NCBI RefSeq assembly: GCF_026571515.1
Contig: NW_026861528.1
Span: forward strand, 1-64,000
DNA from: Ruditapes philippinarum
Taxonomy: Eukaryota
Direction: 5' to 3'
DNA length: 64,000 bases
The translations under genes and the position numbers were made by a program. The notes beneath the pieces are model-generated. The model had not been told where the DNA came from. It saw only the letters and a program-made list of their open reading frames with translations, and made no database searches. Below are positions 34,783 to 61,018 of this stretch, piece by piece (the stretch's first letter is position 1; each line of letters opens with the position of its first letter).

Positions 34783-37700
34783 AAGTAAGTAATAGTTACC
34801 GTACGAGGAATAGGTCTGCATAGTGTTTACAGACACGGGTGGCGATTTGAAGACCGAGAGAGCGTAGCGGTCGAGGTTTTTAAAAGGCAACCGGGTCTGT
34901 AAATACTATGCAGACCTATTCCGAGTGCGGTAACTATCTTACCTACATGCTCTTTTGTTTTTCTATCCATACATCAGTTTTTAGCTCAGTATTTATTAAT
35001 ATTACTTACAAGAAACATATTACTTATGTATTTTATCCTGTTTAAGAAAGCATTCTAAAGCCAAGCAAAGATACCATCCGCTACGCTCTTGTAATTCATT
35101 CGTTCACAAATCAGGTGTTATTTGAATATTCTCGTGATTCTCGTGGGGTTTCATTAGGTAATGTACTTGTTGAGTTGAGTCACAGAAAATGAAAACAGAA
35201 CTTGTCGAGTAGGGAAAGGTAAGATCATTATTTTGATATATGAATACATAACATATCAATAAAATAAACAAATACTGAGGAAGATAAAAAATATTTTCTA
35301 ATCATAAAAAACGGAACACTTTATCTTTATACATAATAAATGTCCTGGTAAATAGATGATCAGGCTATTTCTTATATAATTAAAATATACTTTTTTCAAA
35401 AGAAAGTAAAAGACGGGGTTCTATAACTAAATATTAGTAATACATGTAGTTACACCGTTATGTAAGTTGGGTTTTGTTGTTGTTGTTTTTTATGATGGCT
35501 GATTTTAAATGTTCTTAGAATTTCATCCATGTTTGGAAGAATTTTCTTTAGGTGTATTCTTAATTAGCATCATCCGTTATAAGACCGCATGTAAGCACGA
35601 GGTCAAGAATGGAAGCGAAAGTCGTATTCTTGGTACTGGTATACAAAATCTAAATTGTGATGTAAAAATAACTAAAAAATGAGAAAAACGATCTTATACT
35701 TAAGATGAACTATACTCGCACTGAAAGCAATATTTTGGGAAAGAAAGATGCAGACATTGACTTTGATTCGATATGCACCAGTAATATAATCGTCGTATAT
35801 ATCCTATAAATGCAGAATTGTTAAAATAATGCAGAATTGTGCAAATTTAGACATAGTTGTGGAAATAAATACCGAAAACTTGTATCTTATGAAGCTATAT
35901 AGTTCGGCAAATGTGTTAGGTATACCGAAAAGCAAACTTTAAAGAAAGGCTTAATGTGCGTCGTTATACGCCAGAACAGTAGCCAGTTCGTTTTTCTCAC
36001 AAATAATCTGGAATATAAGTTATGAGGGTCCTTACAGTCGTATGCGCTAATTTATTTCGATTAATCTTTAAAATATATATCGACCCTTTTTCCTTTTCAA
36101 AATTGCCATTACCCCCCCCCCCCCCTACAATTCAGCGTTATTTTACGGTGAATATTGTGTAGTGTAATGCACGAGTTTCTCGACTTCACATATTTTCTAT
36201 TGTATAGAGAACAATAGAACAATAACCGGTCGGTATCTATTTGCAGACCTGTTAACCGGTTGGTAAGTGATTTACTAGACCGCTTTTAACAAAGGAGCCG
36301 GTATGGAACGCCATAGCTGCCTTATATAAACACTTCTAAAGTGGTCATGTCCTTTTAACAGATAGTGCTGTGGTTCTGATAAAAGGTTATGTGGTTTTGA
36401 TAAATGGTGATGTCGTGGTGATAGATGGTCCTGTAGTTTAAATAAATGGTCCTGTGGTTTTTAAAAATGGTTATGTCGTTTTGAAAGATTGTGCTGTAGT
36501 TTAAATAAATGGTGTTGTGGATTTAATAAGTGGTGCTGTGGTTTTGATAAATGGTTATGTCGTTTTGACAGATGGTGCTGTAGTTAAAATAAATGGTGCT
36601 GTGGATTTAATAAGTGGTGCTGTGGTTTTTTAATATGGTTATGTCGTTTTGACAGATGGTGCTGTAGTTTGAATAAATGCTGTTGTGGATTTAATAAGTG
36701 GTGCTGTGGTTTTGATAAATGGTTATGTCGTTTTGACAGATGGTGCTGTAGTTTAAATAAAAGGTGCTGTTGTTTTGATAAATGGTAATGTAAGTATGTA
36801 TATGGCGCTGTTGCTTTGATACATGGTGCTGCAGTAATGATAAATGGTGATGTCGTTTTGATATATGGTAGAGTCACTTTGGTACCTGGTAGTGTCATTT
36901 TATATACGGTGTTGTTGCTTTGATAACTGGTGCTGTAATTTTCATAGATGGTGCTGTTGTTTTGATAAATAGTGCTGTGGTAATGATAAATGGTAATGTA
37001 AGTATGTATATGGCGCTGTTGCTTTGATACATGGTGCTGTGGTAATGATAAATGGTGATGTCGTTTTGATATATGGTGGTGTCACTTTGGTACCTGGTAA
37101 TGTCATTTTATATATGATGCTGTTATTTTTATAAATGGTGCTGTAATTTTGCTATATGTTGATGTTGTTTTAATAAATGGTTATACTATTTTGATATATG
37201 GTGATGTTCTATTTATAAATGACGATACTATTTTAATGTATGGTGATGTTCTTTTTATAAATGGTTATACTATTCTGATGTACGATGATGTTCTTTTTAT
37301 AAATGGTTATACTATTTTGCTATGTGGTGATGTTCTTTTTATACATGGTGATACTATTTTGATGTATGGTTCTGTTATTTTTTATTACGATGATGATGAT
37401 CTATTTATAGATGACCTGTTTGTTTACTGGAACATTTTGATCGGTTATTTTAAATTATGGAGACCTTTGTTTTTCACCAACTTTTATACACTCTAATCTG
37501 AGTTTCATCATATCTTGACTGTTATTTATTCTAAAGTATTTCATTTCCTGCATAGATAACTTGCAGACAAAATCAGGCATGATCTTTTCATATTCAAAAA
37601 ATGTCCACAAGTTAAAGGTTTTTTTTAAATTGCTTCCATTGTTTTCATCAGTTAAACATTTCAATTTTAATTTTAATTTATTAATCTCAGACATTAAACT

Positions 37701-39275
37701 CTTTCCTTCATGAGCATATTGTGAAAAAATGGCCGTTTTCATTGAAAAGCCTCCTGTTACAAGTTCAACTGCTATGGAACTATGAAAAATGCTTTGATAC
37801 TGATGAAAATTGGCACAAGTGTTTACTGGACAATAGCCTGTGTCTTAAATTTCCTGTAAAATTGGCAACAGGGGAACGTCTCAAAATTGCCAAAAATCAC
37901 TATTTTGCATTGGTTTTTCTTTCCATCAAAACAATCTGAGTTCAAAGTGCTACAACTTCTCAATTGATTGAGATGGAGCAAAAGGCTTTTCAGCGTTGAT
38001 TACACGTTACCTTACGATCGACCTAAGGCTATTTTAGCCTGTCACATGTCCAAAATTTTCTTGGCGATGAGGGCGACTGTTGCCTACTTCAACCCCCCCC
38101 CAAAAAAAAACACACTAGAGGGCACATCCCCTTGAAGTACCATTTTGATGGGGTCGGCGCCGAAAAAATGGTCATTTTTTTAACAACATTTCTCAAACGA
38201 AAAACAGTGTCTAGGGTGTAATTAGGGCATTTTTTCACTGTTTAATGCCTCAAAAAGGGGAGGGGGTCTACAAGCCGTCAAAACACGTCTATATGAGGTA
38301 AAGGGTTAAAGGAGGTTACGCCATATTTTTCTCAGAAATAAGTTAATGACCATCTCCACAGTTCAGAAAGACATCACCATGTACAAAAATCACAGTACCA
38401 TGTATAAAATGACAACACTATATACCAAAACAGTATAACCATATACCAAACGGCATAACAACATTTCAAAACGACATTATCATTTATCAAAAGCACAGAA
38501 CTATTGATTAAAACCACCTCACCATTTATCAAATCCATAGCACGGTCTATTGAAACGACATAACCATTTATCAAAATTACAGTACCATATATAAATACCA
38601 CAGGACCATCTTACAAAACGACATAACCATTTATCAAAATAACTGCACCATTTATAACAACCATTGCATCAACTAAAAGAACGACCTAATCATTTATCAA
38701 ATCCACAGCACCATCTTACAAAACGACATAACCATTTATCAAAATTACAGCACCATCTATAATAACCATAGCATCAACTAAAATAACGACCTAACCATTT
38801 ATAAAATCGACAGCACCATCTAACAAATCGACATAACCATTTATCAAAATTACAGCACCATCTATAACAACCACAGCACCATCTAACAAAACGACATAAC
38901 CATTTATCAAAATTACAGCGCCATCTAACAAATCGACATAACCATTTATCAAAATTACAGCACTATCTATAACAACCACAGCACCATTTAACAAAACGAC
39001 ATAACCATTTATCAAAATTACAGCACCATCTTACAAAACGAGATAACCATTTTTCAAATTCACAGCACCGTCTTTTAACATGACTGCAACATATATCTAA
39101 ATTACATCACCATCTATCTGAACGACATCACCATATATGAAAAAAACATCACCATCTATCAAAACCATAGCACCATCTATAGAAACGACATCATCATTTA
39201 TCCAAAGGACATTACGACTTGATAAGAGTAAATATAAGGCAGCCATGGCGTTCCATAAGCCGGTAGGTAATTACG
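34783..39275. mobile_element. Hairpin-ended (Crypton-like) element hosting the IS3EU-like insertion
   Basis: ~145-bp terminal stem-loop 34792-34936 (tagttaccg...cggtaacta, loop gagcgtagcggtcgag). Related gcagacc/ggtaag motifs at 36225-36300. Right boundary is inferred. Confidence 0.5.
36302..39257. mobile_element. IS3EU-like non-autonomous foldback element with inverted 21-bp arrays
   Basis: TIR TATGGAACGCCAT(A/G)GCTGCCTTATAT and 6-bp TSD AGCCGG (36296-36301 / 39258-39263). TAY..RTA ends with a 6-bp TSD fit IS3EU. Arrays ~36355-37430 and ~38375-39210 are in opposite orientation. Confidence 0.8.
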
Positions 39276-39574
39276 TATCTAATGTATTTAGTAATTCAAA
39301 ACGATCGACCATTTTTTTGTTATAAGTGGCAAATATTACAAAGTGTAAAATACGAACTCTGTAAAATGTAAATCTAACCATAATAAAGTTGCATGCATGA
39401 ATAAATAAGTGGTTGATTTTTGCAGGCGGTTAATTTTGTAAATATGAAATTGGTAATGGGAGTGATAAAGTTAAAGTAAACATTCTACACGGAGAGAGCA
39501 AACAAATTGATACATGTAATACATGTTTATCACATAATACGCGGCGCAGGAGTGTAATAAAGCCATTTAATAAT

Positions 39575-40068
39575 CAAAAAAGGGCCATAATTCTCTAAAA
39601 TTTGGTCGCAGCAAAAATTCCTTCCTTTACTACCATCTACACATTAAGGTTGTTCATCCCTGGAAGTTTAAGCAAAATCTGCCATCTGGTTTAAGAGGAG
39701 TTGCGTTCACAAAATTTCTACATTGTATATAATGAAAAAATAAAAAAAGGGCCATAATTCTGTTAAATTTGGTTGCAGCAAAAATTTCTTTCTTTACTGC
39801 CATCTACACATTAAGGTTGTTCATCCCTGGAAGTTTAAGCAAAATCTGCCATCCGGTTTAAGAGGAGTTGCATTCACAAAATTTCTACATAGTATATAGT
39901 GAAAAAATCAACAAAGGGCCATAATTCTGTAAAATTTGGTCGCAGCAAAAATTCTTTCCTTTACTTCCATCTACACCTGAAAGTTGTTCATCCCTGTAAT
40001 TTTAAGCAAAATCTGCCATCCTGTTTAAGAGGAGTTGCCTTCACAAAATTTCTACATAGTATATAAGT
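39575..40068. repeat. Three ~167-bp tandem units (satellite/HINE core-like)
   Basis: aaagggccataattct...ttcacaaaatttctaca at ~39578, 39746 and 39913. Confidence 0.85.
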
Positions 40069-40070
40069 AA

Positions 40071-42341: not shown

Positions 42342-43230
42342 ATCTGCAATGACGGTATACTTATATAAAGCTTGTTGTATGATTTATTTTACATTTGTTT
42401 TTATTCATTTGATTCAGGCAGTAATTTAATACCATGTAGTACATTTTACAATAATATATTAAATCCTTGTTTATTTACAGTATAATTTATACCATGTATA
42501 GACAATAACTTGCATGATTTTTCTACCCTGGAACGAAACATGGTCCCTTATTATCTTCTTCACTTGAACTTTTTCTTTTCACCATATGGTACTGTAGTGT
42601 TGCATATTGAATAGACCTCTTTACTTAGATAAACACTTCTTTCCAAAATATTGAAATTCATCAGTATTAACATAATGAATTATCATTAATAAACTTGTCG
42701 AATCTAAATTATAGATAAACTGTGTTTTCTGTCTCTATAAAAAGTCTTGTCTATTTCAAGAATGTTTCGATAAAGTGCATTGCTTGGTAATTTGTATAGT
42801 AAGGGAAACTGTAAGGTTAAAAGACCCGGGTGTGAAATGGGAAGTAAGACATTACCTGTCAATAGCTCAAAATTAATGATGTTAAAACGTTCCCAATATA
42901 TTTTTGAAGGAAGCAAAGATTAAAATAAATATTGGCTTAAAGAAATAAATCAGGAGAATTTATAATAAATTCGACATAATGCAACTTAAGGAAAGGGTGT
43001 GCAGGTGCTGTTGGTTGTAACGCCGCAACAACTACGCCTGTTAACATGTATCTGAATATGAACTATCGTAACATTGTATAAAATGTTAAGTTTGGTAAAC
43101 TGAAGTAAAAGGAAAACCATTTAACGGAATTTTTACTCAAATTATGTTTTACTTACATTGTTTATGCATTGTGTAATTTAATCTGGTTCCCAGCGTACTT
43201 CTGCAAGAGTACGTCTGGCGTGGCCCAAAA

Positions 43231-46200
43231 ATGGCGACCTCCAGTGTAAGTACAACGGATAGGAAAAAGTATAAATGTTTGGACCATTGGCTGAAATTAC
43301 AAAATAAAAGTTGTCTTATAAGCCTGAAACTGTAGCTCAGCAGTGATTTTGTCATAGATTTATTAATTTTTTGAGCAATTGCATTTTGATTCACTGTTAT
43401 AGTGTTCGGATGATGCGAATGTAATGCCAATTTCGGATACTAAACCAAACTATATACGCTTGTAGATCTATCATAAAAATATAGTGAGAACAACTTTCTA
43501 CGGTATTTAAAACTTATAGATACATTGTGTCCTAAACTTGGCAACAATGAACTGGATGGTATCCAGTGATACCCCTGTTTTATACAGATAATACTTCATA
43601 CTGGAGACATGACAAGTGCATTATAATACAGTCTGATTTAGCCAACACTGTCTGCAAGTGCATCTTATCAGTAATGTTAACCAGTATGAAGGGGGACCAA
43701 GAAGCTTGGGCAGTTTTGTTCATTTATACTAATATTTATGAAAGTTATGTTTTGACATCTGCTGGTAGTATAAGATCCAAGTACATGTATAACAACATAG
43801 ATACCGTATTTTTCATTGAACGTTGGATAGAGCTCCTATCCTAACTTTAAAACCAGCACAACAAACTCAACTTCTAAAATGTTGACAGGTCAGGTGAAAA
43901 TTGTTTCGTTTACATATTGTATACAATTAACTTTAAAGGGACTCGCTTATGTTTTTGTAACTTTAAATGAAATGAAGTGTGGCGAATCATTGGGATTGTT
44001 AAACCCATGTTTTAAATTATTTGCCACCTTTTGTTTGCATACAAAATACATTTTGTACAATAATTGTGTTTTTTCTGCTATTTCGATATCATGGAGTAAG
44101 ATAATGAATAAAATTCAGTGTTTTCAGATGCATTACTGTGAAAACTCATTTTTGGTTCCAAAACATGAGGGAGTCCCTTTTAAAGAGTTTCTGTCCATAA
44201 AACCATTATGCACCAGTCAATTGTAACCAAGGGAACCTAGATAAGGCCTTTTCCCTGCTATATTTTACACGAAGAAAAAACACCGCATTCACTCGGCACT
44301 GCAGGGCCACCTGAAAGGTAAAATACACGGCCCTTTCCCCCCGATATACCCCGGACCTGGGGGGGGGGAGGGGCGTGGTTACAATTGACTGGTGCATTAG
44401 TCAAACACAACTTTTAATGTAAATGTGTAAATTTAGTATTTTTTATTTTTTGAGCTTCTTGCTTTTAAATTTAAATTCATTCTTTCATATGTCTGTAGGC
44501 GTGTAGCATTAACATCATTTGACCTTCAATTATTTCAGGAAAGAAGAATTGCAGATGCAATAACAAATTATAATATACATGTGGGAGCCAAGATCTCAAC
44601 TCTGAAAGAAAATCAGAGAAGTGCTGTAAAATATTTAGTGAGGGCAAGGACTGCATCTGCTCCCTTCCCACTGGTTATGGCAAATCACTGATATATGAAT
44701 TACTGCCTTTCCTTGACACTGGGTGTCTAGTTGTTGTAGTAGTTCCTCTAAATGCAATTCTAAACCAGCAGATGGAAAAGTTAGGTGATTTAGCTATGTC
44801 CCTTTGCCCTGGGAAAGTTGACTTCAATAAACTTAAGACTGGCAAATATAGTTACCTTTTTTGCCACCCTGAACAAATTCTAGACAATAAAGCTCTTAAT
44901 GAGGTTTTTCGCACAGAGGGACTCAGTGGAAGGAAAATTTATCTTGTGGTAGATGAGGCCCATTGCATACTGGAGTGGGGAGAGGAGTTTCGTCCGGACT
45001 TCAAACGATTGTTTCAATTAAGATCACTATGTAAATGCCAAGTACTGGCTTTGTCTGCAACAGTTACAGATGCTGGTAAAAAATGTATTTGTTCAAGTCT
45101 TCTTATGAAAAATGTTGAGATAATAAGTGAAAGTCCGGCCAAAGACAATATCAGTCTTACAGTGAAAAGACGACCAAGTCCTACTGCAAGTGGAAACAGT
45201 TCTACAACACCCTACGATTATATTTTTCATCCTGTTATAACAAAGTTGAAGCATGAATTACAAGATTTTGAGATCACCATCATTTATTGTAAATCCATGC
45301 AGTGGATAGGTTATGGCTACGAGACAGCCAGAAGAATCCTTGGCACGGACTTCTACGCAGGTGATAGCAAACTTGAGCATGCTCGAGTGGTGATGTTTCA
45401 CTCTTCTATGGAAAAAGAATCTGGCCAGGTTTGTATTTGGGTTTTAACAGTTTATTCATTTCAAAATATATACTTGTTTAGGACAGACTTGAATACCATT
45501 GTGGTTTTATGTCTTATTTCACTAAAACGGCTTGTACAATACATAAAAATAAAGTAATGATCATTTCAGATTATCAATGTTTATTAAAACAAAATAATTT
45601 TTTTTAACAGCAACTACATTGATGTTGTTTTAAGCTTACAATTATAACTTCTATTAATATAAATGTGTAATACCAGTAAATAACATCCTTGCCATTCTTA
45701 TAATATACAATACAGATTTTTGGATTGGTATGCAGTATGGATTAGGTACACGTTTTTCAAACTGATCCGATCTACAATCTAAACAATTAATCTTTTCATC
45801 AAACACAAAGTTTGTACAATTCTATTTCAATAAATATCTTCAAATTTTTATCAAGCTTTTTGACCACATAAAGTATCCACTGATGATCCTGTATAAACAA
45901 AATCATGTACCTTGTTACAGCTGAAGAACATGATACTGACATCACTTCAAAAACCAGATGCAGAATGTCGGATAAGGCTCATTATTTCATCTGTTGCATT
46001 AGGAATGGGGGCAGACTTGAAAAACGTTAAAAGGATAATACATGCAGGACCACCAACTAGTTTAGAAAGTAAGTTTAATGTACATTTAAATAAAAAACAT
46101 ATACCTTCCCACATGTTTTCACCATGAATTGTAGATGTAGAAATACGTTTAAGCTAGTTAACTTTATTTTTCGTGTTAAAGCTGCACTCTCACAGATATA

Positions 46201-47332
46201 TTGTTTCGACAACTTTTTAATTTTTTGTCTTTGAATTAGCCAATGTTTGCATAAATATCTGTAAACAAGTGAAATGTGATAGCTAACAAAAGATCAGATC
46301 ACAGTTTCCACATTTTACTTTCAAAATATATTTAACGCTTTAATGCTGCACTCTCACATATTGAACGGTTTAGGACATAAAACATTAATTTTCGAACGGA
46401 AATATAAAAATCTGCAATCTGATATTTTGTAAGCAATCTTTAATCATTGTTTTGCAGATATCTAAGACAAAAAAATAAATAAATGTAAAAACGGTATATC
46501 TTTTAGTGTGCAGCTTTAAAAAATGAGTTTTGGGCATAAAAAACAACAGTACATATGAAAACCTGTAATCGGATCTTTTGTCAGCAGTGTTATAACAATG
46601 GTTTCTAGACATTAATGCAAAAACTGGCTGATTCTAAGACCAAAAAAAGATTTAAAAACGGTATTATCAGGTAAATATCTGCGAGTGCCCCTTTAAGTAA
46701 ATTTACAAAATATTCTTTATACTTCTGGTACACTCACAGCCAAGTTGTAATCTTTCTTACTAATTATGCCATTTTAATTTTCGTTAAAAACTACAATCAA
46801 AATATAATGGAGTCCTTGCATAGTTAGTTATTTTCTATGTCCCAAACAGAAAAGCAACATTACAACAACTCTGTAACAAACATCTTCATTTGTTGCCTTT
46901 TATAAAAAATCAGATAATGTGTTTGTTTTGATTATAAAACATGTGGCACTTGTGATTCTATAACCACTCTGAACACCACATGGAACAACATAATCAGAGT
47001 TCATTGAATACATAATACTTTAATATAGTGCTTTTAATATGTGCATCTTAACTGTTCTTTTGTTTTCAGCATATATTCAAGAGATTGGTCGTGCTGGACG
47101 AACAGGGTCTGTGGCAGAAGCAGTTCTCTACTTCAATAATTCTGACATATCAGGTCAATGTATGAGAAAGGATATGCAAGATTACTGTAGAAACAATGAA
47201 AAGTGTCGCAGGGATATCATCAATGATCATTTTGGCTTCCAAACCAAGGAAAAACCAACAATCTGCTGCAATTTTTGTGACTCTCAACTGTGTATTGAAT
47301 GGGATTTTTCTAATTTAGCAATAAATAAGTGA
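43231..47332 (+). CDS. RecQ-like SF2 helicase of the transposon; exons 43231-43245 (putative), 44539-45428, 45921-46068, 47070-47332; one frameshift ~44630
   Basis: Q motif LKENQ, Walker A LPTGYGKS, DEAH, WGEEFRP, LSAT, ALGMG, QEIGRAGR and the RecQ Zn-binding CRR...CCNFC. Intron phases 0/0/1 are consistent. Confidence 0.9.
43937..44179. mobile_element. Kolobok-like MITE in helicase intron 1
   Basis: TTAA-AGGGACTC...GAGTCCCT-TTTAA. Confidence 0.65.
44209..44396. mobile_element. MITE with 21-bp TIR and TTA TSD (PIF/Harbinger-like)
   Basis: TGCACCAGTCAATTGTAACCA / TGGTTACAATTGACTGGTGCA. Confidence 0.75.
46176..46696. mobile_element. Nested Kolobok-like MITEs in helicase intron 3
   Basis: ttaaagctgcactctcac starts (~46176, ~46340) and ends gtgtgcagctttaa (~46519) and gagtgcccctttaa (~46696). 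Confidence 0.6.
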
Positions 47333-47595
47333 AAAATCTCAATTAGGTTCTTCAGCACAGGAACAGATTTTGATGCACAAATAAAAGTTTAACAAAGTGT
47401 TCTTGTAAAAGATTTTTTTTAAATTACTGAAACATTACTTTCTAACCAAGTGTTCATTGTGTCATGCATAATAAAATGTAAATGCTCATGTACAGTACAC
47501 AATACATCATCATATTTTAATTACATATTATGTTTAACTGTACTAAAATTATGATGTGTTGCTCAATTACAGTTAGTTACTGTATCAATTATTGT

Positions 47596-49321
47596 TCAAA
47601 GTTCATAATGTAGCAGCATTTTGTGATGCAGAATCCATTTCAATATATCAGCCATATACAATTTCTTAATAGGATTTTTTGGTACTTTTTTCAGAGATTC
47701 AGACTGACGACCACACACTTCCATGAATGGTTTTATTTGTCTCAGGTCTCTGATAATTTGTTTTTCATCCTCGAATGAAGATAGTTTTTTGTGTTTTGTG
47801 AGCACGCTGTACAACCCCAGTTTTTTTGTCAAAGTTGTTTGATATTTCCTCCATCCCAAAGAAAGCACTACTTCTTTTTACCAATGATTTATCAGTCACA
47901 TTTGATCCCATTGACCGTAAATGTCCTTTGGTCAATCTTACAATATGTTCCATTTGAAGATCTGCAAGAATGATAGTTCTACCAGTGTTAACAAACAGTC
48001 CATAAATGCTTTCATTTGCTGTTTTTTCACTCAAGAGGGCAAATTGCTGACATAACAGTCTTAAAATCTCAAGAGCATATTTTGACTTATTCTTATGGCC
48101 TTTCAACACCAGCATGATATACTTCATGTGACAGAGCAAACGAATCCGACTTGGTGATTTCACAATGTCACATAGTTCGAGAAAAATGAGTCCAAGTTCC
48201 AATACAACTTTACTATATGACAATACAGCGTCAGTTCCATTAACATCCACATCTTCACTTGATATGTGCCGCCTGCTTTCAGATATTATGTTTTAAACAA
48301 GTGGTTGTACAAAAGTCGTCATCCAATGCTTTATTTCATTGTTTGTCATATTTTTGTGGTCTGGGAGGTTTTCTGGGGCTGTGTCAGTGTTCTTCAAATC
48401 AAAATACTGACATGTTGCTTCGACAATGTACGCCCTTATGAATGAAACTGCTAGGTCTCGACAGCTATCATAATGATTTTTGACGTCTTTACCTTCAGCA
48501 TGTTTTCGCAAAAGTCTTACTTTCTGTGAGTAAAGTGTGAATGGCTCTGTACAGTCCGCTTTGTAAAGTATGTCAAAGAATGTTGCTAAAACAGTCATTT
48601 GAACATGGAACAGCTCAAATGTTATTGGAGATAGATTTTCAAACCTCTCGGATGCAGTCAGGGCTGCTGCTCTTAGTCTTTTTGCACCAGAAAACCTTTC
48701 TCTAGTGAGCTGGTCACCCCCTATGTGAATTTGAGGAACTTGGAGTCCAGAACCTTGATATAAGGTCTCACCTAAATCTTGGTATGTGTCCAAAATATCT
48801 ACAACATCAGCATATTTCTGTTCATTTTTATGCTGTATTTGAAGGGGTATGACTGTGTTTTTCAGTTTCATTTTCAAAGGTGTTCCCCCTTGAATTTCAT
48901 TACTTACAGCTGATTTGGCAAAATTTAGCCATGGAAAAAAGTCTGTTAATACCCTTGAAACAAGAATGCACATATCACTTGTTATCACTTTCCAGTCATT
49001 ATCATGCATAATGAATTGCTCGGCTGGAAGCTGCTCAAGGTTGCACTGGGGTATTGTGTCTGAACAGTCATTGAATGAAACATTTTGAACAATGGCAGCA
49101 GATCCAAACCAATGTTCCATATGGCCAGCTTTACCTGTACTTTTTCTCTCGTTCGTGACTCCAATATTGAAGTTAATATTGTCTCCAACTATTCGAAATT
49201 TCTTGCCCTCTTGTATGGAATTGATCAGCTCAGTGTTAAAGCTGCCTGATATGGCTGACATAGTCTCCAACATGCCAGAATGGCTAAGTGATATACCCAG
49301 AGGCTGTAGCCGGTCATACAC
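47596..49321 (-). pseudogene. Academ-type DDE transposase catalytic exon (DUF6589-like) with one in-frame stop (48293-48295) and one frameshift (~47795)
   Basis: Motifs VGDNINF, GGDQLTRER, FELFH and DLQMEH. Splice acceptor at 49322-49323. ORFs 48293-49321 and 47765-48250 share a frame. Confidence 0.85.
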
Positions 49322-50349
49322 CTGTTGGATAGAGAAAACATATAAAATAGATAGTGTGTGTGTTGAGGATTACACCATATTACATCTCCTTACATTGAAG
49401 GTCAGTCTTTTTGGTTCAGAACAAGTACTAATTTAAGTTCACTGCAAAAACGTACAAGCCTATATTTAGTATTTATTTGTACAGGTAATACTTATTTTTT
49501 ACATTTCTAAGGAGCACCAACTGTCATCAGAAAATATGCCCCACCTAAATGTACGACAACAAGTTTGGTGATAGGTGGTTGTATGTTAAATGCTACAATG
49601 GACACTGCAAAGACAGTTTCAATGGTCCTTTCTCTTGAAGGACTGATGCTTAAAAATTGGTTATGAAATATAACATAACAGTGATTTATAGTGAAACTTT
49701 TTGTAAATTAAATTAAATAATTAATGACTCCTGGCTGCTTTAATATCAAAATCATATTCAATTATAAACATAAACATGACATAAAGAGACCTATTGAAGA
49801 CTTTGAATAGAAAAAAGCCCTGGTCTGTCACATTTACCCAAAATAGGTTGTTTCTTTGACGGTGATATCCTGTGGTCGAACTTCATTAACTGTTCAAAGT
49901 GAAGAGAAGAACCAGCAGGTGAACAGGAAAACATCAGCTAGAACTTGGAACGTAACTGCTTTAGAACATTGAGAAAACGTCAGCTATAACTTGGAACTTA
50001 ACTGTATAACATGAAAAACAAGGGTTTCAACTATAACACAAGCAATTGGATGCTGAACTATATTTAAAGTAACATGCTTCGAAAAACTTCATAAATGTCT
50101 TATGATATTATATACATTTATGTGTGGTGTGCATATTACTGTATCTATTTTAATTTGTATGTTATTTGTCAAGTTCTCATTTATTGTCATATATTGTTTC
50201 CTTTATCAATGGTTACACCTGGAGAATATATACCTCATAGTAATGAAATAGTAAGGTTCATACATTTATGCATGTTTGTATAATATAAGTGCATGGTTTG
50301 TATTCTTAATTCACTATTACGGCATTTAAAGGAATTTTAAATTTTTGTT

Positions 50350-53300
50350 GATTGGCCTTTTTTAAAAGACAAATTCATTATTAAAAGAAAAAAAAACCCT
50401 TTTTAGGCCAAACTTTTTAACTACCGGGCCTTTGCAAAAAATTCTGAAACAGTTTTGGGCCAATGAAACCAAAACCATATACCTTTTGGTGGGGCGTTCA
50501 TTTTCCCCCCTTTTAAAACTGCAAACAACCCTTTTTTTGGACACTGGAAACCAATTCATGGAAACCCTTCATTTCAACCCCATCCCCAAAATTTTACTGT
50601 ACCCACCCCACTGGCCCAACAAAACTCTGTTTCAGCAAAATTTTTCCAAAATTTTTCCATTTTGGAAGGGGCAACCCAATTTTAAAATTTCAGCCAGAAA
50701 ATTTTGCTTGTCTGTCACTTTTCAGCTACAATATTGTCCCAACTGAAAGTTGCTAGCTTTTCATATTGTTTTTTTTTGATTTAAAACACTCCTTCTGGTT
50801 GCACATTCTCTGGCCTTCCATTTCTACGTCATATAGCACCAAGGCACTTTCAATTCCTCTGCTAGAGACGAGCTCATTAAATCCTCTGGCAATTTGTTGA
50901 GGACTGCCTCTACCTGTTGCAAAATAAGTAACCACCATTACAGTTCTTTCCACAGTAAGACAACTTGAACAGCTGATTTCCATCAATGCCTGTAGTCATG
51001 CAAGATTTCATTCGTAATAACAATTTTTAATACCTAAAAACTTGTTTTATTAGCCCCAATCTTTCAACAGTTTTAAAAGGGAAATCTGATCTGGAATGAA
51101 TTAAAGCTGAAGCTCTGCCTAACTCCATATAATAAGTGTATAAAGAATAATTATTGGTTTTTCTTTTTTTAACTTACAAAGCAACTCCACCAAATGAGCC
51201 TTTTCACCGTCCTTGAGCTCAGCATAATGACGAAAACGTCTTAAAGCAGCCTTGTGAATAGACTCTGCACCCTTGCCAGCTTTTTTCTGGAGTAAGACAA
51301 AAATCAAGTTGGATTGTCTTGGAAAAAACTTGATTTCTTGTAACAAGCAGAATACTTGACAACATCAGTCATTGGAAAACCTTGTGCAAAAAACTTGAAA
51401 GAAAAGTGGATTGAATCAAAATAAAAAAAATAATTTTGCATTTATCTAAACAATTGTTTTACTAATGGCACATACATTTAATAGTGACAACCGAAGAATA
51501 TTAATTGCATTTGCAATATTATCTTGCTTTGATCAAGGGCTCTTATTCGGCCATTTGAATTAAGATATACACACAAACATTCAATTTAAAGCCCACATCA
51601 TAACATCATGTGTACATGTATAACATCTAAAATGTTTCTAATTTTTGCTGCTTAGCATGAATTACTATGTATATCTTCAGATATATCAGAAAGTTTTAAT
51701 ATTACAATAAGAATTTACAAAGTATTTTCTATTTAAAAAACAAAATATTTAAACACCTTACAATATTATTTACCTTAAGTTCTTTTTTTGGCTCCAAAAA
51801 TATCCATTCACCTTCCTCATGAAACACTTGACCTGAAACTGAAAAACCACAGAGAATGAGTGTTGGTATATCAAATAACCCGATACCTGACACTCTACAA
51901 ATTGTAGAGTCAACATTAACATTTTTCATATACATTATCTAAGTGTTATCATTTTGGACCAGCAATGTCACACGGGGGCCCCAATTTAACATCCCTCACA
52001 GATTTGCTTGATACATCAGTTCACTTATTGCATTACCCATTCACTGGTGGCCATTACATACCTGTATATGGTTTGGACAATGTTTCAATATTTCATTACC
52101 AACTGTTAACATTCTCAACAATTTACCTGGTAGATATAGGGAGCACTATGTCAGTCTGAGTTCCTTGATCCACTGATTTCACTATTTCTCCTGAAGAGGA
52201 AGGGATCTGTTCAGTGATGTCCAGTCTCTTAAATGCATTTTTGCAGGAACGGCCTGTTAAACAATAAACTCATTTACAAATATGTTTTTTAAAAATGAGT
52301 TACCATGTTCAGAGTATTAAGAAACTATTGTGCTATCTATCAATTTAATACCAGAAATCCACATCCATTACAGTTGTATTACTAAATGTTTTTATAACAT
52401 GTTCAAAGGCTTAACAATGCTGCAGAAATGGTGAATTGTCTATATTAAAGTACAAAATTGTTCATAAAAGCCGAATTTCCAATAACTATCTGTCACCATG
52501 GAAGCAACATGGATAACAGTATGTTCAAAATGTATTCAACCACCTTCATTTGTTCCTATCACAAGTGTGTGTCACATTGCCATTGAATACAGTAATGTAC
52601 ATATTTTTATTTTTAACATTTTTTTTTTATTTTTTATAATTTATTTATTTTGGTCAATATGATGAATATAATTATGTCTTATGAAAAATTATTCCACAAT
52701 TTTTCATGAAAGAAAATTACTATCTTTATTTTATACAATAATTATACTAATTTTTTTTCATGAAAAATTGTGGAATATTTTTTATAAATATGACATTGAA
52801 TCACTATCTTGACCAAAAATATAAATAATAAAAATATAAAAAATATAAAAAAATATAAAAAATAAAAAAAATATATTCAGGCAATATGACGAGCGCCTGT
52901 GGTTAAACTAAACCTGAAATAATTTCTCTTAAAACTCGTAATATGTTTATCTTACCTGTCCTTAGATTCACAGGAAATTTGACATTCATTGCCTCGGCAC
53001 ATTTTGTCCAGTACATAGTATCTGTACCATGTTGCTCATTACATCTTACATACTGGTGAAGGAACTGCTTTTCTTGGATCGACCAAGGGCAATGTCTGGC
53101 CACACGGTCCTGTAATAAAAATTAGTTAGTTTTTTTGTGTTTTTCATTTTTAAATTTAGCATTTATGTTAGGAAAACTATTTCGAAACATCAAATACATA
53201 CCATCTCTCCCATTTTTTTTCTACCTTTAATATATATATTATTTTTTATGTTCTTTAGAAAATAAGTCCAAAATGCTAATAGGATTTTTCAAACAAAGAG

Positions 53301-53570
53301 GTAGATCAATGGTTTGTATTAAAAAGCATACAGTTATACCGGGGTATTTCAGAATATACAAAATCAGAAGTTTACCTCACACAATGATGTGCGTTTAGAC
53401 ACCTGAACTGGAGTTTTGCCTGTTGGTGTGCTGCTCTCTCGTTTCCGTTTGGATTTTGTTGGCGTTTGTTTGAGCTTTGATGGTGACTTCACATATGAGT
53501 GCTCAATACTGTCTCTCACAATTTTTGGCAGACGTTCTTCTGGATCAAACCTCGGATATGTGTGGTCCAT
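50350..53570 (-). CDS. Upstream exons on the transposase strand, including a Myb/SANT domain; exons 53570-53376, 53109-52956, 52253-~51774, then degraded exons ~51395-51175 and ~50989-50350
   Basis: Phase-consistent splicing gives ...PWSIQEKQFLHQYV...YWTKCAEAMNVKFPVNLRT/GRSCKNAFKRL. The later exons are frameshifted. Confidence 0.65.
52575..52890. repeat. AT-rich imperfect palindrome (MITE-like) in an intron
   Basis: attccacaatttttcatgaaa / tttcatgaaaaattgtggaat and ttttggtcaa / ttgaccaaaa. Confidence 0.6.
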
Positions 53571-54021
53571 TGTAAATATTGTTTCCCTGTTTAATGAATA
53601 TTTGTATATATTAATGCCATACTCAGAACACTTAAATCTGACTAGTTACATGTATGTGTATTCAAATCATAAGTAAACACAAACTATGTTCTGAAAAAAA
53701 GGTGAACACACAAAAAAGGTGAATTTTTATTACCAGATTTTACTATCCGAAATACCTATATTCCGTTCATTGTCCGAAACCTATACAACTACGTAAACAT
53801 CCGATTTCCAAACAAACCAAAGCTAACCAACACTACCTAACGATAGGAATCAATACAAATATATAAAAGTGAAATACCTACAGAGTTATAAATAGACGGT
53901 CCACAAAATATGTTTTTACCTTTAAGATAAGGAATGCACAGGAGGCAGCCATTTCCAGCGTGTGCCAGGCCCGATAATGAAATGGTAAGGGCAGGTAACC
54001 CAGGCTATGTGTAATTTACTT

Positions 54022-54126
54022 GATACAGTTCATATGCCGATGGATACAGTTCATATGCCGATGGATAAAGTTCATATGCCGATGGATACAGTTCATATGC
54101 CGATGGATACAGTTCATATGCCGATG
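54022..54126. repeat. 21-bp tandem repeat x5
   Basis: gatacagttcatatgccgatg. Confidence 0.9.
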
Positions 54127-56729
54127 AAGTCATTTAAACAAAAACATGTGATCATAGAAGTTTGTAAGGTTTATAAAGAGGAATAAATTGATTATGCGTT
54201 ACATATAGGATTAATTAATTATATGTATGCATTTCAGTACCAGCTGGAGCATACAATTTACCATAGATTTTGACCACAGACGAACGAGTTTTACTTACCA
54301 CAGCTAATTCCTACTAAATCGGATTTTTAAATTGAAACAAAAATGTTTTTGAACTTGGACCTTTTGCACACAAATGGCAACATATTCAACCAATATTTTA
54401 TTATATTATAATATTAAATTGCATTCTTATGTACAGTAATTGATAGTGACACCACTGCGTACTTTCCAGAAATTTCAAATCATTGATACCAATGCTATAA
54501 AGATGATTAAATAAATTTCGACAAGGTTATAATGAATTACTTACAATATTATCTTGAAAATATATATCATATTGTTTATATTTTACGCCTTTGAAACATC
54601 CAAATGAAATAGTAATGGGTATAGGTACATGTTCAGGTGTGATATCGTAAAAATAAGTACTTGAAATGAAGTGGAATCAACAACTACAAATATTCAAGTG
54701 TGATTATGCTCCATGTTTTATTGTAAAGGACAAATATAAATCTTCCTAAAAATATGAAAAGGCTGCCCCATTTTATTTACTTTTTTATTTTTATTTTATT
54801 TATCGTATGGATATTTTTAGAAATTCGTCGAACCACTATTGTTATCCATCGTTTTTGCAATGTATATAATAATGTAGTTTAAAGGATTTATGGAAAATTG
54901 TTAAGTTATTTTGACCTTCACCTATTCACTCACTATATTTCCTTGGATGCTACAGATCTACAAACTTGTCATACATTTGGATTGGATGACTTGGGCATGG
55001 ACAGTAAATTTAGTTCCGTTCATCAACAGGCTCAAATAAAACTGAGCCTGTAACATTTTCAATGTTTCCATTTTTGACGTTCATAAGGGATTATTTCTCT
55101 TTATTTTATTTGTCTTATTTCTCTTTTCCATGAAAAGCTCAATCAAAAAGAGACGGCATTGGCTTGGGATTCTTTATTGTTTCCGTTTTTCTCTATTTCC
55201 ATTTTCATTTACAATCAAGTCGGTAGACTGGCACAATTTTTCCCTTCTTACAAACAAAATTATTAAACATTTTGGCAATTGCGGATGTTACTCTTTAGTT
55301 TTATAATATACTGCCTGCTCTTTTCTAATATCTACGTAGCATACAATGGTAATTTGTTGTTATTTTGTAAGAATAAGATAAACAAAATCAACAAGGAAAG
55401 GTGGCAGTCAATGAACGCAACCCCACACGGCCAAGCAACAAGAACCAGTTGCAAGATTGTAAAAGATTTGCTCCAGTTCTATGAAATTTCATTTTAATTC
55501 CTACATGTGTGTAGGAGATATGCTCCGGAAACAATTGGTCTTTGGTCTGTCCGTCCATTTTTCATGGTCGTTCCTGTATTACGACCATTAGTTCAAACGA
55601 ACGTATAAAAATGAGCATAATGTCAGTATAACATCTATAGGCATGCAAGCACACGCTGATACATCATTAGGGACTCTTATTCACATATGGAAGTTTATTT
55701 GCTCTACATGTTTTCATCTTTTTACAATTTTACTGTGCAGTATTAAAAGAATAACTGCACTGACTTCTGGAAATAGTGTTTACAAAAGTTATATAACCTT
55801 ATTTCCCATGGAACCGTTATTTAAAAAATCTTTGATGATTTTGAAATTACTAACGAAACTATGTTATTTATGGTCGAATATTTATTGAAAATACTTTCTA
55901 CGAAGGCTATAAACTAGAAGATCCTCGCTTCTGGCCAAAATTCACGCGTTGCAGACAAGCTTTATTTTCAAGTCATTGTTTATGTTTAAGAAATTGCATG
56001 AAATGATGTTTACGTTTTAAAGAAATTTTAAAGAAGTTAAACGGTATACGTGATGCTTGACAAATTTCATATTCAATAGATAAACAAACGTTGTGAGATT
56101 ATGTGCATCGTAAAAAGCTTCGTCAACCATCAATATATATACTTTGTCATTAAACGTGGTGTTGCTACATTGTGAGACTGACTTATTCTTAAAACTGAAA
56201 AGTCAAATTTTACCGGTTGGTTGAGTGTTTCATCGTATTCGGAAAATATAGAGGTGAGTAATAATAAAACTGTAAGAAAAGTTAGGAGTAAAATAAGTCG
56301 GATTAAAGACCCTACATGAGATATTAAAGGTATTTATCATTATTTATGTTAAAAAGGATCAAATTCAAAGTAAAACCATGACTCTCAAGATCCCAATATT
56401 CGAAAAATCAAAAACTGATCTTATTGAGAAAATTATACAAGAATTTCAAGTGTTTTGAAGTTTTCTTAAAAATTGTATTTGAATCATTTGAAGACAATAA
56501 AAAGGGAATGAATTGTTTTGTCAACAGTCGGACAATACTAGTCAACTTATTTTATAATTTGAAATACCTCATTGATAGATAATATTGTAAAATAACGAAT
56601 AGATGGTATGAAATAATAATTCTTTAATTTGCTCAAAATTTCTTCACAAAAAATGTAATTAATATATATAGTGTAATATGTATAAGTTTATATTATAGAA
56701 ATTTGTTTTCAGACAAAGGTGGAATGGAA

Positions 56730-59700
56730 ATGGATTCAGTCAAAATTATGCTCGCATTTGTTTCTGCTTTCTTATTCAATGATTGTCAATGGGGCCCTGT
56801 GGGTAAGTGTGCAATTGAGTTTATGCTATTTACCTATAGATTGTGACAAATCGCCACACCAGCTAACGGACATTGCTGTCCAAAATGCAAAGAAGGCAAA
56901 GGTATGAAGAATGAGAAGTTGTTATATCATTCCGCAATATGTTTTGATAAATATTTAAAAAAGACGTTATAAATGTATACAAAGTTATGTTTTCAGTATA
57001 CCAAATTAAGTTTTATCTTGTGAATGGACGATAAATTGAAGTTTAACCATATTAGCTATAATCAAACTTTACTTTTTGTATGCAAAATAAAAACATATGA
57101 AAATTCTCCAAGAAAACGAAATAAAATGTTATAAAATATGTAAGATGCAGAAGTTCGTACATAGAAAGACAGAAAAAATGTAGGTTTAAACTGTCCGACA
57201 AATGTGAGGCTAGAGAGAATGTGTTATCGGGATTATAATGTAAGCACCCTTTTATTCTAAATGAAAGTTCTTTTAAAAATTATATTTCTGTAAAGAGCAA
57301 TAAACATGATTGTTTTGTATAAAGAATTCCAAGTCTGGCCTATAAAAGTACAATATTATTGCATTAATAAGCCAGAATTATTTCCCATATAATCGTACTT
57401 TGGTTTTCAAGAAATGAAAAGTTCAACATAGACGTAGTATTAAGAAATTGCTTTCCATGAATGCCTTTTGAATTGCCTACGAGATATAAAGGTAATAAAA
57501 ACATGACTACCATTTGTATTATATGGCGAGGGATATCAACGAGTTTACTCGTTATTATTCCGAACTCCCCCATTCATACCTACAAGACAAATTGTAGTCT
57601 ATAGTACAAGATATTGTTAACTGGTTAGATACCATTAGTTATTTTTTGCCAAAAGTTTAGTTTACAGATGCGTTCATTGAAAGCCGCCCTATCTCGCTGA
57701 TCTTTGGTTTCATATTTTACAAATAAATAAATATGTTAACTTAAAGTTATTTTCGTAACAGGATACACCCAAATTTAACAACCATAACGTTTCATATCAG
57801 GTGGAAATACAATCTATTCGAGAGAATTCATTTGTAAATAAAAATATTTTACCCGAGTCACTTCACAATTATGAATCACGACTTGATAGAAATGCGTCAT
57901 GTCTTTTGCCATTAAATGTTTTCCACATTAAATCATGTTACACGAGAGGGATCGAGTTCTTGTGATAACTGTCACGGACTTTTGTATAAACTACAAATAC
58001 ATTCGTCAAAATGAAAATATTCATCTTTGAAAAGTCAGTTATTAAGTGCTTTATTAAATTTAAGTGATAACGTCCGCCTTACATCTTGTTTTATTTGTCA
58101 AAACAAATTCATCAGCTATTTTTCATGGCCTCTTGCTTAAAATCTGGTTGTTTTGAATCAATTTCACTAAAAATAATAGGAGACAGATTATACAGTCATT
58201 AAAGGGACTCAACTGAGATTTTTTATTTTACATGAAAGAATTGGAACTAAATATTCGAAATCTATTTGCAATTTGATGTAGGTCAATAGCATTAATTTGT
58301 GTGTACGATAATTTGCTCATATAATAACAAATTGTGACGTGTAATGATAACTTACACAATATCTAAAATGTGTGGCATCTTAAACGATACATCTTTAAAA
58401 CACACACACACCATACGCATGCACGCACGCACACGCACACACACATACGAACGCATGCACACACACACGCACACACACGCACACACACGCACACACGCAC
58501 AAACTGTCAAAGCGGATGAAAAAGAGGCAAAATGTATGTTCAGTATCTATGAGTTGCAAACATTAACAAAGAAGCTGTTGAATCTTCTGGGCAATCTTGT
58601 GACTATAAAGTTGGTGATAAAATTAAGGTAAACATTCCAGACGGGAAGAGCAAAAAAAAGATAGATTGTATTACGTGTACATGCAGAGACGGCGTGCTTG
58701 CTTGTACCAAGATGGTGCTTGTGGTAATTTGTTTTATATTTGTCCATGAAATTGATTTATTTTTAAAATATCATTCTTTTTATCATTGCAAATACATGTA
58801 GTAAATTTACATTATGTTTCATAACATTTTCAATATCATTATTTATGCAATGTAATTTATGTTTATGATTAAGCGCACGTTAAATTTCAAATCCTTAAAA
58901 TGCAAAAAATGGGGGGGGGGTGAATAGCGTTTCAACTTATAATTCGTCAAATTAATTTTGTTATAATTGTATTGTGTTACTCGAAATAATCTTAAAGTTA
59001 ATTGAGTGAAATGATTTTTCGATTAGACTTATAAACAGGAAATATTTCTAGATAGAGTGATAATTATTTGATACAACACAAACGTTTTATAGATAAACAG
59101 ATAATTATTTGTTATGTAATTGGTAAGTGTTGGCAGTTCTTGGCACTTTTGAGTGTTTTTGGAAGTTAGATACTTATTCTTAATCTAACAGAAAAAAAAC
59201 ATATTTATTTGGTATGATAAATATCTTGTTATTCAACACGAAAACAAACTAAATAGTAAGTCAGATAGTTGACGCAATAATTGTGTGATAACGTTGACAG
59301 AAATATGCCACCATAAGAACCTTATTTAATTGACGTCAAACAAATTGAAATAGTCTTTAATGGTGTGAATTCTGTCTAACGTTGGTAGAAAACTGCCAAA
59401 TGCAAAGATTACAACTTCAATGATGAAGCGAAATGTTTTTCAACCTAAAATTTACATTGTTGGTATCTATGTGTGCAAGTGGCCATATAAAGTTTACATG
59501 TCGATGAGACCATATTCATAGGCTATTTGTCATGGCCTCGTGCTTAAAAACTGGTTGTTTTGAAATACTCAAAACAATAGGAGAAAGATTATACAGTCAT
59601 TAAAGGAACTCAACTGAATTTTTTTTTACATGAAAGAATTGGAACTATATTTTCGGAATTTGTTTGCAATTTGGTGTTGGTCAATAGTATTAATTTGTTG

Positions 59701-61018
59701 TACGATCATTTTACTCATATAATTAACACATTGTGACGCATAATGATAACGTTTACAATATCTAAAACATGTAGCATCTTAAACGATTAATCTTCAAAAC
59801 ACACAAACGCACTCACGCGCGCACACACACATACGCACACACACACGCGCACAACGGGTGAAAAAGAGGCAAATACTCTGCAAAATGTACGTTAGGTATC
59901 GATAAGATGCAAACATCCACAAAGAAGCTGTTGGTTCTGCAGGTAAATCTTGTGACTTTGAAGTTGGTGATAGTATTGTGGTGAACATTCCGGACGGGGA
60001 GAGCAAAAAAGATAGACTGTAATACGTGTATGTGCAGTGACGGCGTGCTTGCGTGTACTAAGCTGGCTTGTGGTAATTTGTTTTATATTTGTCCATGAAA
60101 TTAATTTCTTTTTAAAATATTATACTTTTAACCATTGAAATACATGTAGTAAATTTACATTATCTTTCATAACATTTTCGATATCATTATATATACAAGG
60201 TAATTTATGTTTAAAAATTAAGCGCACGTTAAATTTCAAATCCTTATAATGCAAAAATGGTAAATTGGGGGGGGGGAGGCTAAATAACGCTTCAACTCAT
60301 AATACGTCAAGTCAAATTGATTTTGTTATAATTGTATTAACTTACTCGAAATAATCTAAAACTTGATTGAGTGAAATGATTTTTCGATTAGACTTATAAA
60401 CTGGAATTTAATCTTGATATAGCGATAATTAACTGATATTTAAAAAGTAAAAAACACAAACGTTTTATGGATAAACAGATAATTATTAGTTATGTAATTG
60501 GTAAGTGTTGGTAGTTTTGGGCACACTTTTGAGTGTTTTTGAAAGTTAGACAATTATTCTTTATCTAACAGAAAAAAAAACATATTTAGTAAGTCTGATA
60601 AATATCTGTTTTTCAACGCGAAAAATAAATACATAGTAAGTCAGATACTTAACGCGATAATTGTGTGATTAACGTTGACAGAAATATGCCACTTTAAGAA
60701 CCTTATTAAGTTGACGTCCAACAAATTGAAATTGTCTTTATGATGTGAAAACGGTCTAACGCTGGCAGAAAACTGCCAAATGCAAAGATTACAACTTTAA
60801 TGATATACTGGAAAGTTTTTTTCAATCTAAAATATACACTGTTGTTATCTATTTGTGCAGCTGGCCATAAAAAGTTTACAAGTCGATGGGATCATATTCA
60901 ATCAACAAACATAATGAATACATGCAACACAAATCCAAACTAAAACATCTCTTGCATGCACAGGATTTGTATATGTTAACCAATTTGCTTTATTTATGTA
61001 TTTACAGTGGAAGCTTGA
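56730..61018 (+). pseudogene. Gene C: paralog of B with small indels; exons 56730-56901, 59943-60072, 61008-61018, plus a dead duplicate exon ~58590-58723
   Basis: Four 1-2 nt indels in the first coding exon and +1 A in the run at 60005-60010. The corrected exon reads GKSCDFEVGDSIVVNIPDGESKKIDCNTCMCSDGVLACTKLAC/VEA*. Confidence 0.75.
58400..58501. repeat. (CA)/(CACG) microsatellite
   Basis: Directly visible; shorter version at ~59798-59852. Confidence 0.9.

Follow-up and report, generated by a model that had tools for sequence, protein, structure and literature searches.

AcademH transposons have termini of the TAG...CTA type with subterminal hairpins. The lineage was reportedly defined by Kojima 2020, a paper that is also said to recognise a PHD-finger sublineage. 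Accounts of AcademH are also given in PMC10045372 and PMC10799480. AcademH elements are described as encoding a helicase together with a transposase and as having TSDs of 9 or 10 bp (PMC10045372), and bivalves are described as a group in which Academ is expanded (PMC10294476). Two other kinds of transposon offer points of comparison for the locus studied here. In the P element, alternative splicing is described as yielding two products, a transposase of 87 kDa and a repressor of 66 kDa that binds DNA (PMC7776569), and PIF/Harbinger elements are described as having a 3-bp TSD and a Myb protein on a separate ORF (PMC4482050). Among short host-directed motifs, Asp/Glu-His-X-Tyr is the HCF-1-binding motif (HBM) and is described from most human THAP proteins, although its presence is no guarantee of HCF-1 binding, as in THAP5 (PMC13631171); the LC8 motif is described as anchored on TQT, eight residues long and placed in a disordered linker (PMC10046861).

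Here we analysed a stretch of 64,000 nucleotides of Ruditapes philippinarum DNA (the window). A first-pass annotation had proposed that an AcademH element in it encodes a Myb/SANT domain with HCF-1- and LC8-type motifs, either as an N-terminus or as a third gene.

The AcademH element and its copies

The features of the element are given in Table 1. The flanking 9-mer TGTGTAATT is single at an empty site (G000:C15858), which confirms the TSD. Mini-elements of 59-74 bp consist of the two AcademH ends joined. When ten such loci were examined by eye, nine had both ends, and these had TSDs of 9 bp (four loci) or 10 bp (four loci, one with a mismatch) or none (one locus). A second family of the same genome is 11,017 bp long and has its own 10-bp TSD, with an end design matching that of the window element; one of its copies has a TSD of 10 bp and two have 9 bp. 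Both termini of this family read TAGTCTGG; those of the window element, TAATCTGG and TAGCCTGG, fit the TAG...CTA pattern of AcademH, as do its subterminal hairpins.

Table 1. Features of the AcademH element and its flanks, in window coordinates.
Feature	Position	Strand	Length	Description
Left TSD	43170..43178	.	9 bp	TGTGTAATT; identical 9-mer at 54008-54016
AcademH element	43179-54007		10.8 kb	9-bp TSD on both sides
Left AcademH end	43179..43218	+		TAATCTGG..., hairpin, ...CTGG; placed from empty sites and 59-74-bp mini-elements
RecQ-like helicase gene	43231..47332	+		Exons ~43231-43245, 44539-45428, 45921-46068, 47070-47332
Exon 7	47596..49321	-		DUF6589 core; D, D, E candidates
Exon 6b	49955-49838	-	118 nt	Stop-containing cassette (poison) exon, CAG/GT ends
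Exon 6	50483..50913	-		Helical region ending ...NEQTHQK; placed by alignment with C7400 and C12133
Exon 5	51178..51286	-	109 nt	Joints 4-5 (X1, X2) and 5-6 (X1)
Exon 4	51774..51838	-	65 nt	64 nt in C12133; +1 frameshift in the window copy
Exon 3	52253-52127	-	127 nt	Myb helix 3 (GRSCKNAFKRL), LC8-type motif DQGTQTD
Exon 2	53109-52956	-	154 nt	Myb/SANT-like helices 1-2; invariant W, E, W
Exon 1	53570-53376	-	195 nt	Start codon, two (D/E)HxY, basic KSKRKR, STPTGKTP
Right AcademH end	53950..54007	-		TAGCCTGG..., hairpin; C9582, C13443 and C2700 terminate at the same base
Right TSD	54008..54016	.	9 bp	Second copy of TGTGTAATT

The helicase is RecQ-like, of superfamily 2 (Pfam DEAD, E 1.4e-20; RecQ_Zn_bind, E 5.8e-05), and exon 7 of the transposase gene matches Pfam PF20231 (E 5.9e-22 and 1.2e-13). 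Its DUF6589 core, whose counterpart in a relative has a DDE-transposase-like fold (below), is taken from context as the putative Academ transposase of the RNase H type. The AcademH setting read into this DNA at first pass is upheld by the 9-bp TSD and the RecQ-like helicase, a pairing that marks AcademH (PMC10045372).

The window copy is broken. Besides the extra nucleotide in exon 4, it has an in-frame stop (48295-48293) and a frameshift near 47794 in exon 7, a 1-nt lesion near 44638 in the helicase gene, and a garbled exon 6, and lesions were present in every full copy examined. Exon 6 is 392 nt long and open in other copies. Its homopolymer-type insertions in the window are absent from copies C7400 and C12133 and from both contig sets described below (X1 and X2); because these all lack them, the damage to exon 6 looks like homopolymer-type sequencing error.

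Exons 1 to 3 and the transposase transcript

Exons 1, 2 and 3 are bounded by GT donors and CAG acceptors. Spliced together they keep one open frame, which encodes a peptide of 158 aa with MDHTY, EHSY, KSKRKR, W-x3-E...W...RTGRSCKNAF and DQGTQTD, in agreement with the three phase-compatible exons and the motifs that the first-pass annotation had named. They are not confined to this copy. All three are carried by copy C7400 of the same genome (G000), and both C7400 and C9582 match exon 2 at 99% identity. The genome holds 15 matches to exon 2, three at 99-100% identity and others at 35-51%. The layout of exon 1 recurs in the second family of the genome and in the proteins P0038, P0039, P0188 and P0197.

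Splicing was read from 4 of 24 sequencing runs, aligned to positions 43150-52500, a span outside which the exon 1-2 joint lies. X1 and X2 are contigs from two studies, RNA by our guess, and contigs drop rare forms; none of the runs is on record as RNA. Joints 3-4, 4-5 and 6b-7 were found in both sets and joints 5-6 and 6-6b in X1 alone (record 6), and in both sets exon 3 runs as a loose end into letters of exon 2, giving joint 2-3. Record 6 is an unbranched contig of 1177 nt, with 211 nt left over for the 195 nt of exon 1. One spliced chain, exons 2-3-4-5-6-6b-7, was observed. The X1 contigs also contain joints and a loose end of the helicase gene, and X2 includes unspliced contigs as well; transposase splice joints were not seen in the raw reads of X21 (203 reads) and X23 (5 reads).

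Myb and DUF6589 likewise stand in one chain in the gene models P0022, P0020, P0189 and P0076/P0200 (Sinanodonta, Solemya, Batillaria). Of the two options offered at first pass, the third gene is rejected because the exons share a spliced transcript with the DUF6589 exons, and the N-terminus stands, on this splicing and on the single-chain gene models. Exons 1-3 are very probably the N-terminus of a transposase gene with a Myb fold.

A predicted Myb/SANT domain

Pfam returned no Myb match for exon 2 of the window, even at E<=2. Among aligned members, 2 of 17 had one; E values in relatives ranged from 0.0017 to 0.045, and even the best match (0.0017) scored too low for the gathering cut-off where shown. 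The W, E and W residues are invariant in all 17 aligned Myb-domain sequences. A three-helix bundle is present in the structure models of two relatives. In P0038 (mean pLDDT 44.5 overall), residues 80-140 are confidently modelled, and residues 78-139 (pLDDT about 76-86) match Zeste (Z 7.4, rmsd 2.2, 62 aligned), with GT-1, a trihelix protein, at Z 6.8 and matches to c-Myb repeats as well; in P0189, residues 135-192 match c-Myb R1 (Z 7.1, rmsd 1.8, 50/50 aligned). The structure-comparison tool's own note calls a Z of about 7 middling, and the two independent models agree. Other searches added little: Foldseek with the P0038 and P0189 models found nothing at E<=0.001, profile A1, run against the sequences of solved structures, gave two weak, unrelated matches, and a word-index search with the Myb region of P0022 gave 58 candidates, of which the self-match alone held. 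On the folds of relatives and the weak Pfam matches, the domain in the window, a Myb/SANT-like domain already at first pass, is predicted to be Myb/SANT. A binding site for it was sought in the element ends and none was assigned.

The full-length model of P0189 (pLDDT 78.7, pTM 0.71) is confident across the exon 6-7 junction, and its core is closest to the P-element transposase (Z 9.8, rmsd 6.9, 376 aligned), with Hermes and RAG1 next. In a quick tree of 38 such cores, 26 of whose rows are unlabelled, one branch (SH-aLRT 94) parts five Myb-labelled from seven finger-labelled rows. In one Academ lineage, Myb appears to take the place of a zf-AD-like finger.

The first-pass annotation knew of no Myb/SANT domain described for AcademH. 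We found no literature description of a Myb/SANT domain, an HBM, an LC8 motif or a poison exon in Academ, in a search outside the scope of which Kojima 2020 and Repbase lie. An automatic database label for the fusion of Myb and DUF6589 already exists: P0022 of Sinanodonta woodiana (UniRef A0ABD3THF2 / KAL3836462.1), an 846-aa gene model with STPTGKTP, Myb, ETQTD, the helical region and DUF6589, is auto-named 'Myb-like domain-containing protein'. Separately, several short Myb-HCF-1-type products are already annotated as uncharacterised mollusc genes.

HCF-1-type and LC8-type motifs

Exon 1 has two (D/E)HxY motifs, and none of 20,000 shuffles produced such a pair. We surveyed the motif in a set of 187 proteins. 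With query-derived near-copies removed, 47 of them had the helical region with at least 100 aa ahead of it, and these formed 43 clusters. Among Academ N-termini without Myb, 34 of 38 carry (D/E)HxY (shuffle mean 0.59, at most 4 in 500 shuffles), the search profile having included the motif unfiltered and most matches having covered the helical part alone. The motif is found in 11 of 14 N-termini with a C2C2 finger, on which Pfam zf-AD matches weakly (E 0.004-0.4), as well as in eight of the 11 N-termini of Myb type (shuffle mean 0.08), of which six have two; the three without it are gene models, one marked partial. As controls, four altered motif patterns occur in 0-4 of the 43 clusters, and in catalytic cores (D/E)HxY is found in 4 of 34 against 3.1 expected. 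Around the motif, relatives' models have pLDDT below 50. On the counts with and without Myb, we regard the HCF-1 motif as Academ-wide. The motif picked out at first pass is real, yet it is not special to the window element. We find it quite likely that it is functional.

The LC8-type motif has a narrower distribution. Downstream of Myb, [TC]QT is present in 8 of 8 clusters (shuffle 0.41), a pattern picked after inspection of the data and a count that excludes three clusters not reaching the region; the strict form TQT is present in 5 of 8 (shuffle 0.32). As an Academ-wide motif TQT was rejected, with 2 of 38 non-Myb N-termini against 1.75 expected. Both motif types named at first pass are non-random in the shuffle tests. 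When the exon-3 peptide was co-folded with LC8 of the same genome, the score was 0.77 and that of the best control 0.02. In the calibration of this score, which does not extend to peptides, the mark was attained by 51 of 78 pairs with solved structures and by 2 of 108 mismatched pairs. The contacts involve peptide residues 24-33 (VKSVDQGTQT), with at least 83% contact agreement between runs and a partner pLDDT of at least 52. LC8-TQT complexes have already been solved, and the co-fold pass may reflect model memory. A functional LC8 motif is likely.

Exon 6b and the predicted truncated product

Read in frame with exon 6, exon 6b gives LRSKF*, with the stop at codon 6, 100 nt ahead of the last junction. 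Joint 6b-7 has a depth of 26.7 in X1 and 6.4 in X2, and the exon is present in copies C7400 and C12133. The first-pass annotation had asked whether its exons splice to 49321; in the contigs they do, but through this frame-breaking exon. The direct 6-7 joint was not seen in the aligned contigs, where the garbled end of exon 6 in the window could mask one. Since transcripts reach 49321 by way of a frame-breaking exon, the region would also yield a separate short protein. The predicted product with exon 6b has 347+5 = 352 aa, and that of direct 6-7 splicing, for which the phases of the two exons agree, has about 921 aa. The D-D-E candidates of P0189 (D467, D622 and E917), taken as catalytic from conserved columns, all lie beyond the junction at residue 420.

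The position of the exon 6-7 intron is very widely kept, most exon-level matches ending in QK, then V. The helical region continues directly into V[YF]DRL in the Myb-type gene models and in the Logan zf-type proteins P0109/P0203/P0204. Spliced proteins of three other families stop 7, 8 and 54 residues past the same QK (P0035/P0038 and P0043, from Logan, and P0039, from Mercenaria RefSeq), and in all of them the first residue after QK is other than V, impossible from a GT donor. Their tails, and that of P0051, had no match in the genomic DNA searched. P0055 was rejected as a further example of an alternative exon, its similar tail being explained by read-through into the intron. Where Myb-type proteins derived from transcripts extend as far as the junction, all are short (296-417 aa). 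Exon 6b itself overlaps a short tandem repeat, and its DNA had no match in the other families compared. Whether it represents selected regulation is a close call, which we put slightly on the negative side. The mRNA form of the truncated isoform is seen; its protein is predicted, and by analogy with the P element it may act as a repressor.

A working model and its alternatives

We moderately favour a model in which the 5' end of the transposase gene provides a Myb domain with docking sites for HCF-1 and LC8, and inclusion or skipping of exon 6b decides whether the whole enzyme or a short, non-catalytic form is made. With 6b skipped, exons 1-7 would give the ~920-aa transposase. Its Myb domain would bind DNA, probably the element ends, an LC8 dimer would pair two transposase chains immediately behind this domain, and tethering of the complex to HCF-1-bound chromatin would fall to the (D/E)HxY motifs. 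With 6b included, translation would end at 352 aa, ahead of every candidate catalytic residue, and the short protein would compete for DNA, as the 66-kDa repressor of the P element does, or else the mRNA would be lost by nonsense-mediated decay; in both cases there would be little enzyme.

A plainer account would make the Myb, HCF-1 and LC8 features an ordinary transposase N-terminus and 6b an unselected cryptic exon in a repeat-rich intron. It would accommodate the tandem repeat that 6b overlaps, which has several units with an AG and a stop, as well as the failure to match 6b in other families and the lesions of every full copy examined. We nonetheless consider it doubtful, as 6b is the sole exon-6 partner kept in X1, whose exon 7 has neither lesion of the window copy, the 6b-7 joint recurs in X2, and the three other families stop just past the same junction. 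A two-protein system like that of PIF/Harbinger, with an independent Myb/SANT partner encoded by exons 1-6(b) and a catalytic protein translated separately from exon 7, would suit the uniformly short transcript-derived Myb-type proteins and has precedents in Harbinger and Nuwa, described as encoding a separate Myb/SANT protein (PMC4482050, PMC12730594). It is improbable in view of the single transcript with exons 1-7 and the phase match of exons 6 and 7; moreover, the uninterrupted passage of the helical region into V[YF]DRL, both in Myb-type gene models and in P0109/P0203/P0204, and the confident single-chain model of P0189 across the junction speak against it. Least probable by far is that the exons are a captured fragment of a host gene carried as cargo, with incidental motifs. 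The absence of a Pfam Myb match from the window peptide would agree with such an origin, which is largely refuted by the same exon order in the second family, an 11,017-bp element flanked by a TSD of its own, by the single branch shared by the Myb-type cores and by the enrichment of the motifs over shuffles.

Beyond the window element itself, two results matter more widely: the HCF-1 motif that recurs across Academ and the candidate splicing switch. Academ is a little-studied superfamily, and this would be a first concrete working model for it, with a DNA-reading domain, recruited host proteins and a limit on enzyme output. If about nine-tenths of Academ N-termini have an HCF-1 motif, recruitment of HCF-1 would no longer be confined to THAP/P proteins but would include a second transposase family, and new host transcription factors could readily arise from a short spliced Myb-HCF-1 protein.

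Comparison with described systems

The window element and AcademH as described share a helicase and TSDs of 9 or 10 bp, together with a transposase that is putatively of the same type. P0022 combines, as the window gene does, STPTGKTP, Myb, a TQT-type motif (ETQTD), the helical region and DUF6589; it differs in having a database label alone, in not being called a transposase and in a start without HCF-1 motifs. PIF/Harbinger and Nuwa are, like the window element, DNA transposons that encode a Myb/SANT-type domain, and the best fold matches are to Zeste and the GT-1 trihelix. In contrast to PIF/Harbinger, its Myb domain is on the transposase transcript, its TSD is 9 bp (9 or 10 bp in the lineage) and it has a helicase; membership of PIF/Harbinger is ruled out by the 9-bp TSD and the shared spliced transcript.

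The P element serves as the working model, although the window element is not a P element. The likenesses are the candidate splicing of one transposase gene into a full and a short DNA-binding form, the HCF-1 motif of most human THAP proteins, and the fold, P transposase being the best match of the P0189 core. The DNA-binding domain is THAP in the P element and in THAP proteins, whereas it is Myb-like in the window gene, and the P element retains intron 3, whereas the window gene includes a cassette exon. More speculatively, animal Academ may have converged on the control kit of P elements and THAP proteins, with HCF-1 motifs in nearly all members, a swappable head (zf-AD-like or Myb), an LC8 dimeriser in the mollusc Myb lineage and a poison-exon switch in a conserved phase-0 intron directly ahead of the catalytic core, giving a repressor that resembles a Myb-HCF-1 transcription factor. 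In the window gene, the cut made by exon 6b would remove all candidate catalytic residues.

Minimal derivatives and cis requirements

At nine loci of the clam genome (L047-L055; e.g., contigs C7734, C12653, C15156, and C7244 of assembly G000), we detected mini-elements of 59-74 bp that consist solely of the left ~26-38 bp and the right ~33-37 bp of the AcademH family found in the window, mostly flanked by target site duplications of 9 or 10 bp. These mini-elements suggest that the cis requirements of this family are very short. An internally deleted derivative of the element (43547-48022), in which about position 43549 is joined to 48020, was found in the copy on C12133, in X2 (a contig set presumed to be RNA), and in the raw-read run X21. 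Within helicase intron 1, a 68-bp stretch (43533-43599) matches 11 other loci at 81-84%.

The element is inserted into a repeated sequence (43000-43180 and 54008-54300), and empty versions of the site occur on G000 contig C15858 and twice more on the window's own contig (at about 71 and 85 kb).

Transcription and transposase introns

At 47070-49322, transposase exon 7 (-) and the final exon of the helicase gene (+) are covered by a single contig of X1, the other presumed RNA set, so a 3' overlap between the convergent helicase and transposase transcripts is possible. In the second AcademH family of this genome, transposase intron 6 carries a duplicated piece of the sequence for the C-terminal part of the transposase (C380 and C3698; L092/L093 and L024/L025); the same intron holds the stop-containing poison exon in the window's family. 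The AT-rich inverted repeat in intron 2 of the window's copy is possibly a small inserted element.

Repeat features of the window
Feature	Position	Remark
AT-rich inverted repeat, ~270 bp	52254-52955 (intron 2)	Common to three other copies
21-bp tandem repeat	54022-54126	Adjoins insertion site
Two inverted arrays of 21-bp units	36300-39290	About 1.6-2 kb apart; arrangement resembles a foldback element
Tandem duplication (about 1.37-kb spacing) and 167-bp triple repeat	58221-60900 and 39569-40069	

Host LC8 genes and relatives

LC8 genes, with 16 matches in the genome, are clustered as intronless copies (C1882, C9411, and C13971; L106-L113). A Mya arenaria gene model (P0034) shares 86% identity with exon 6 of the window's family (L017:4379-4768).
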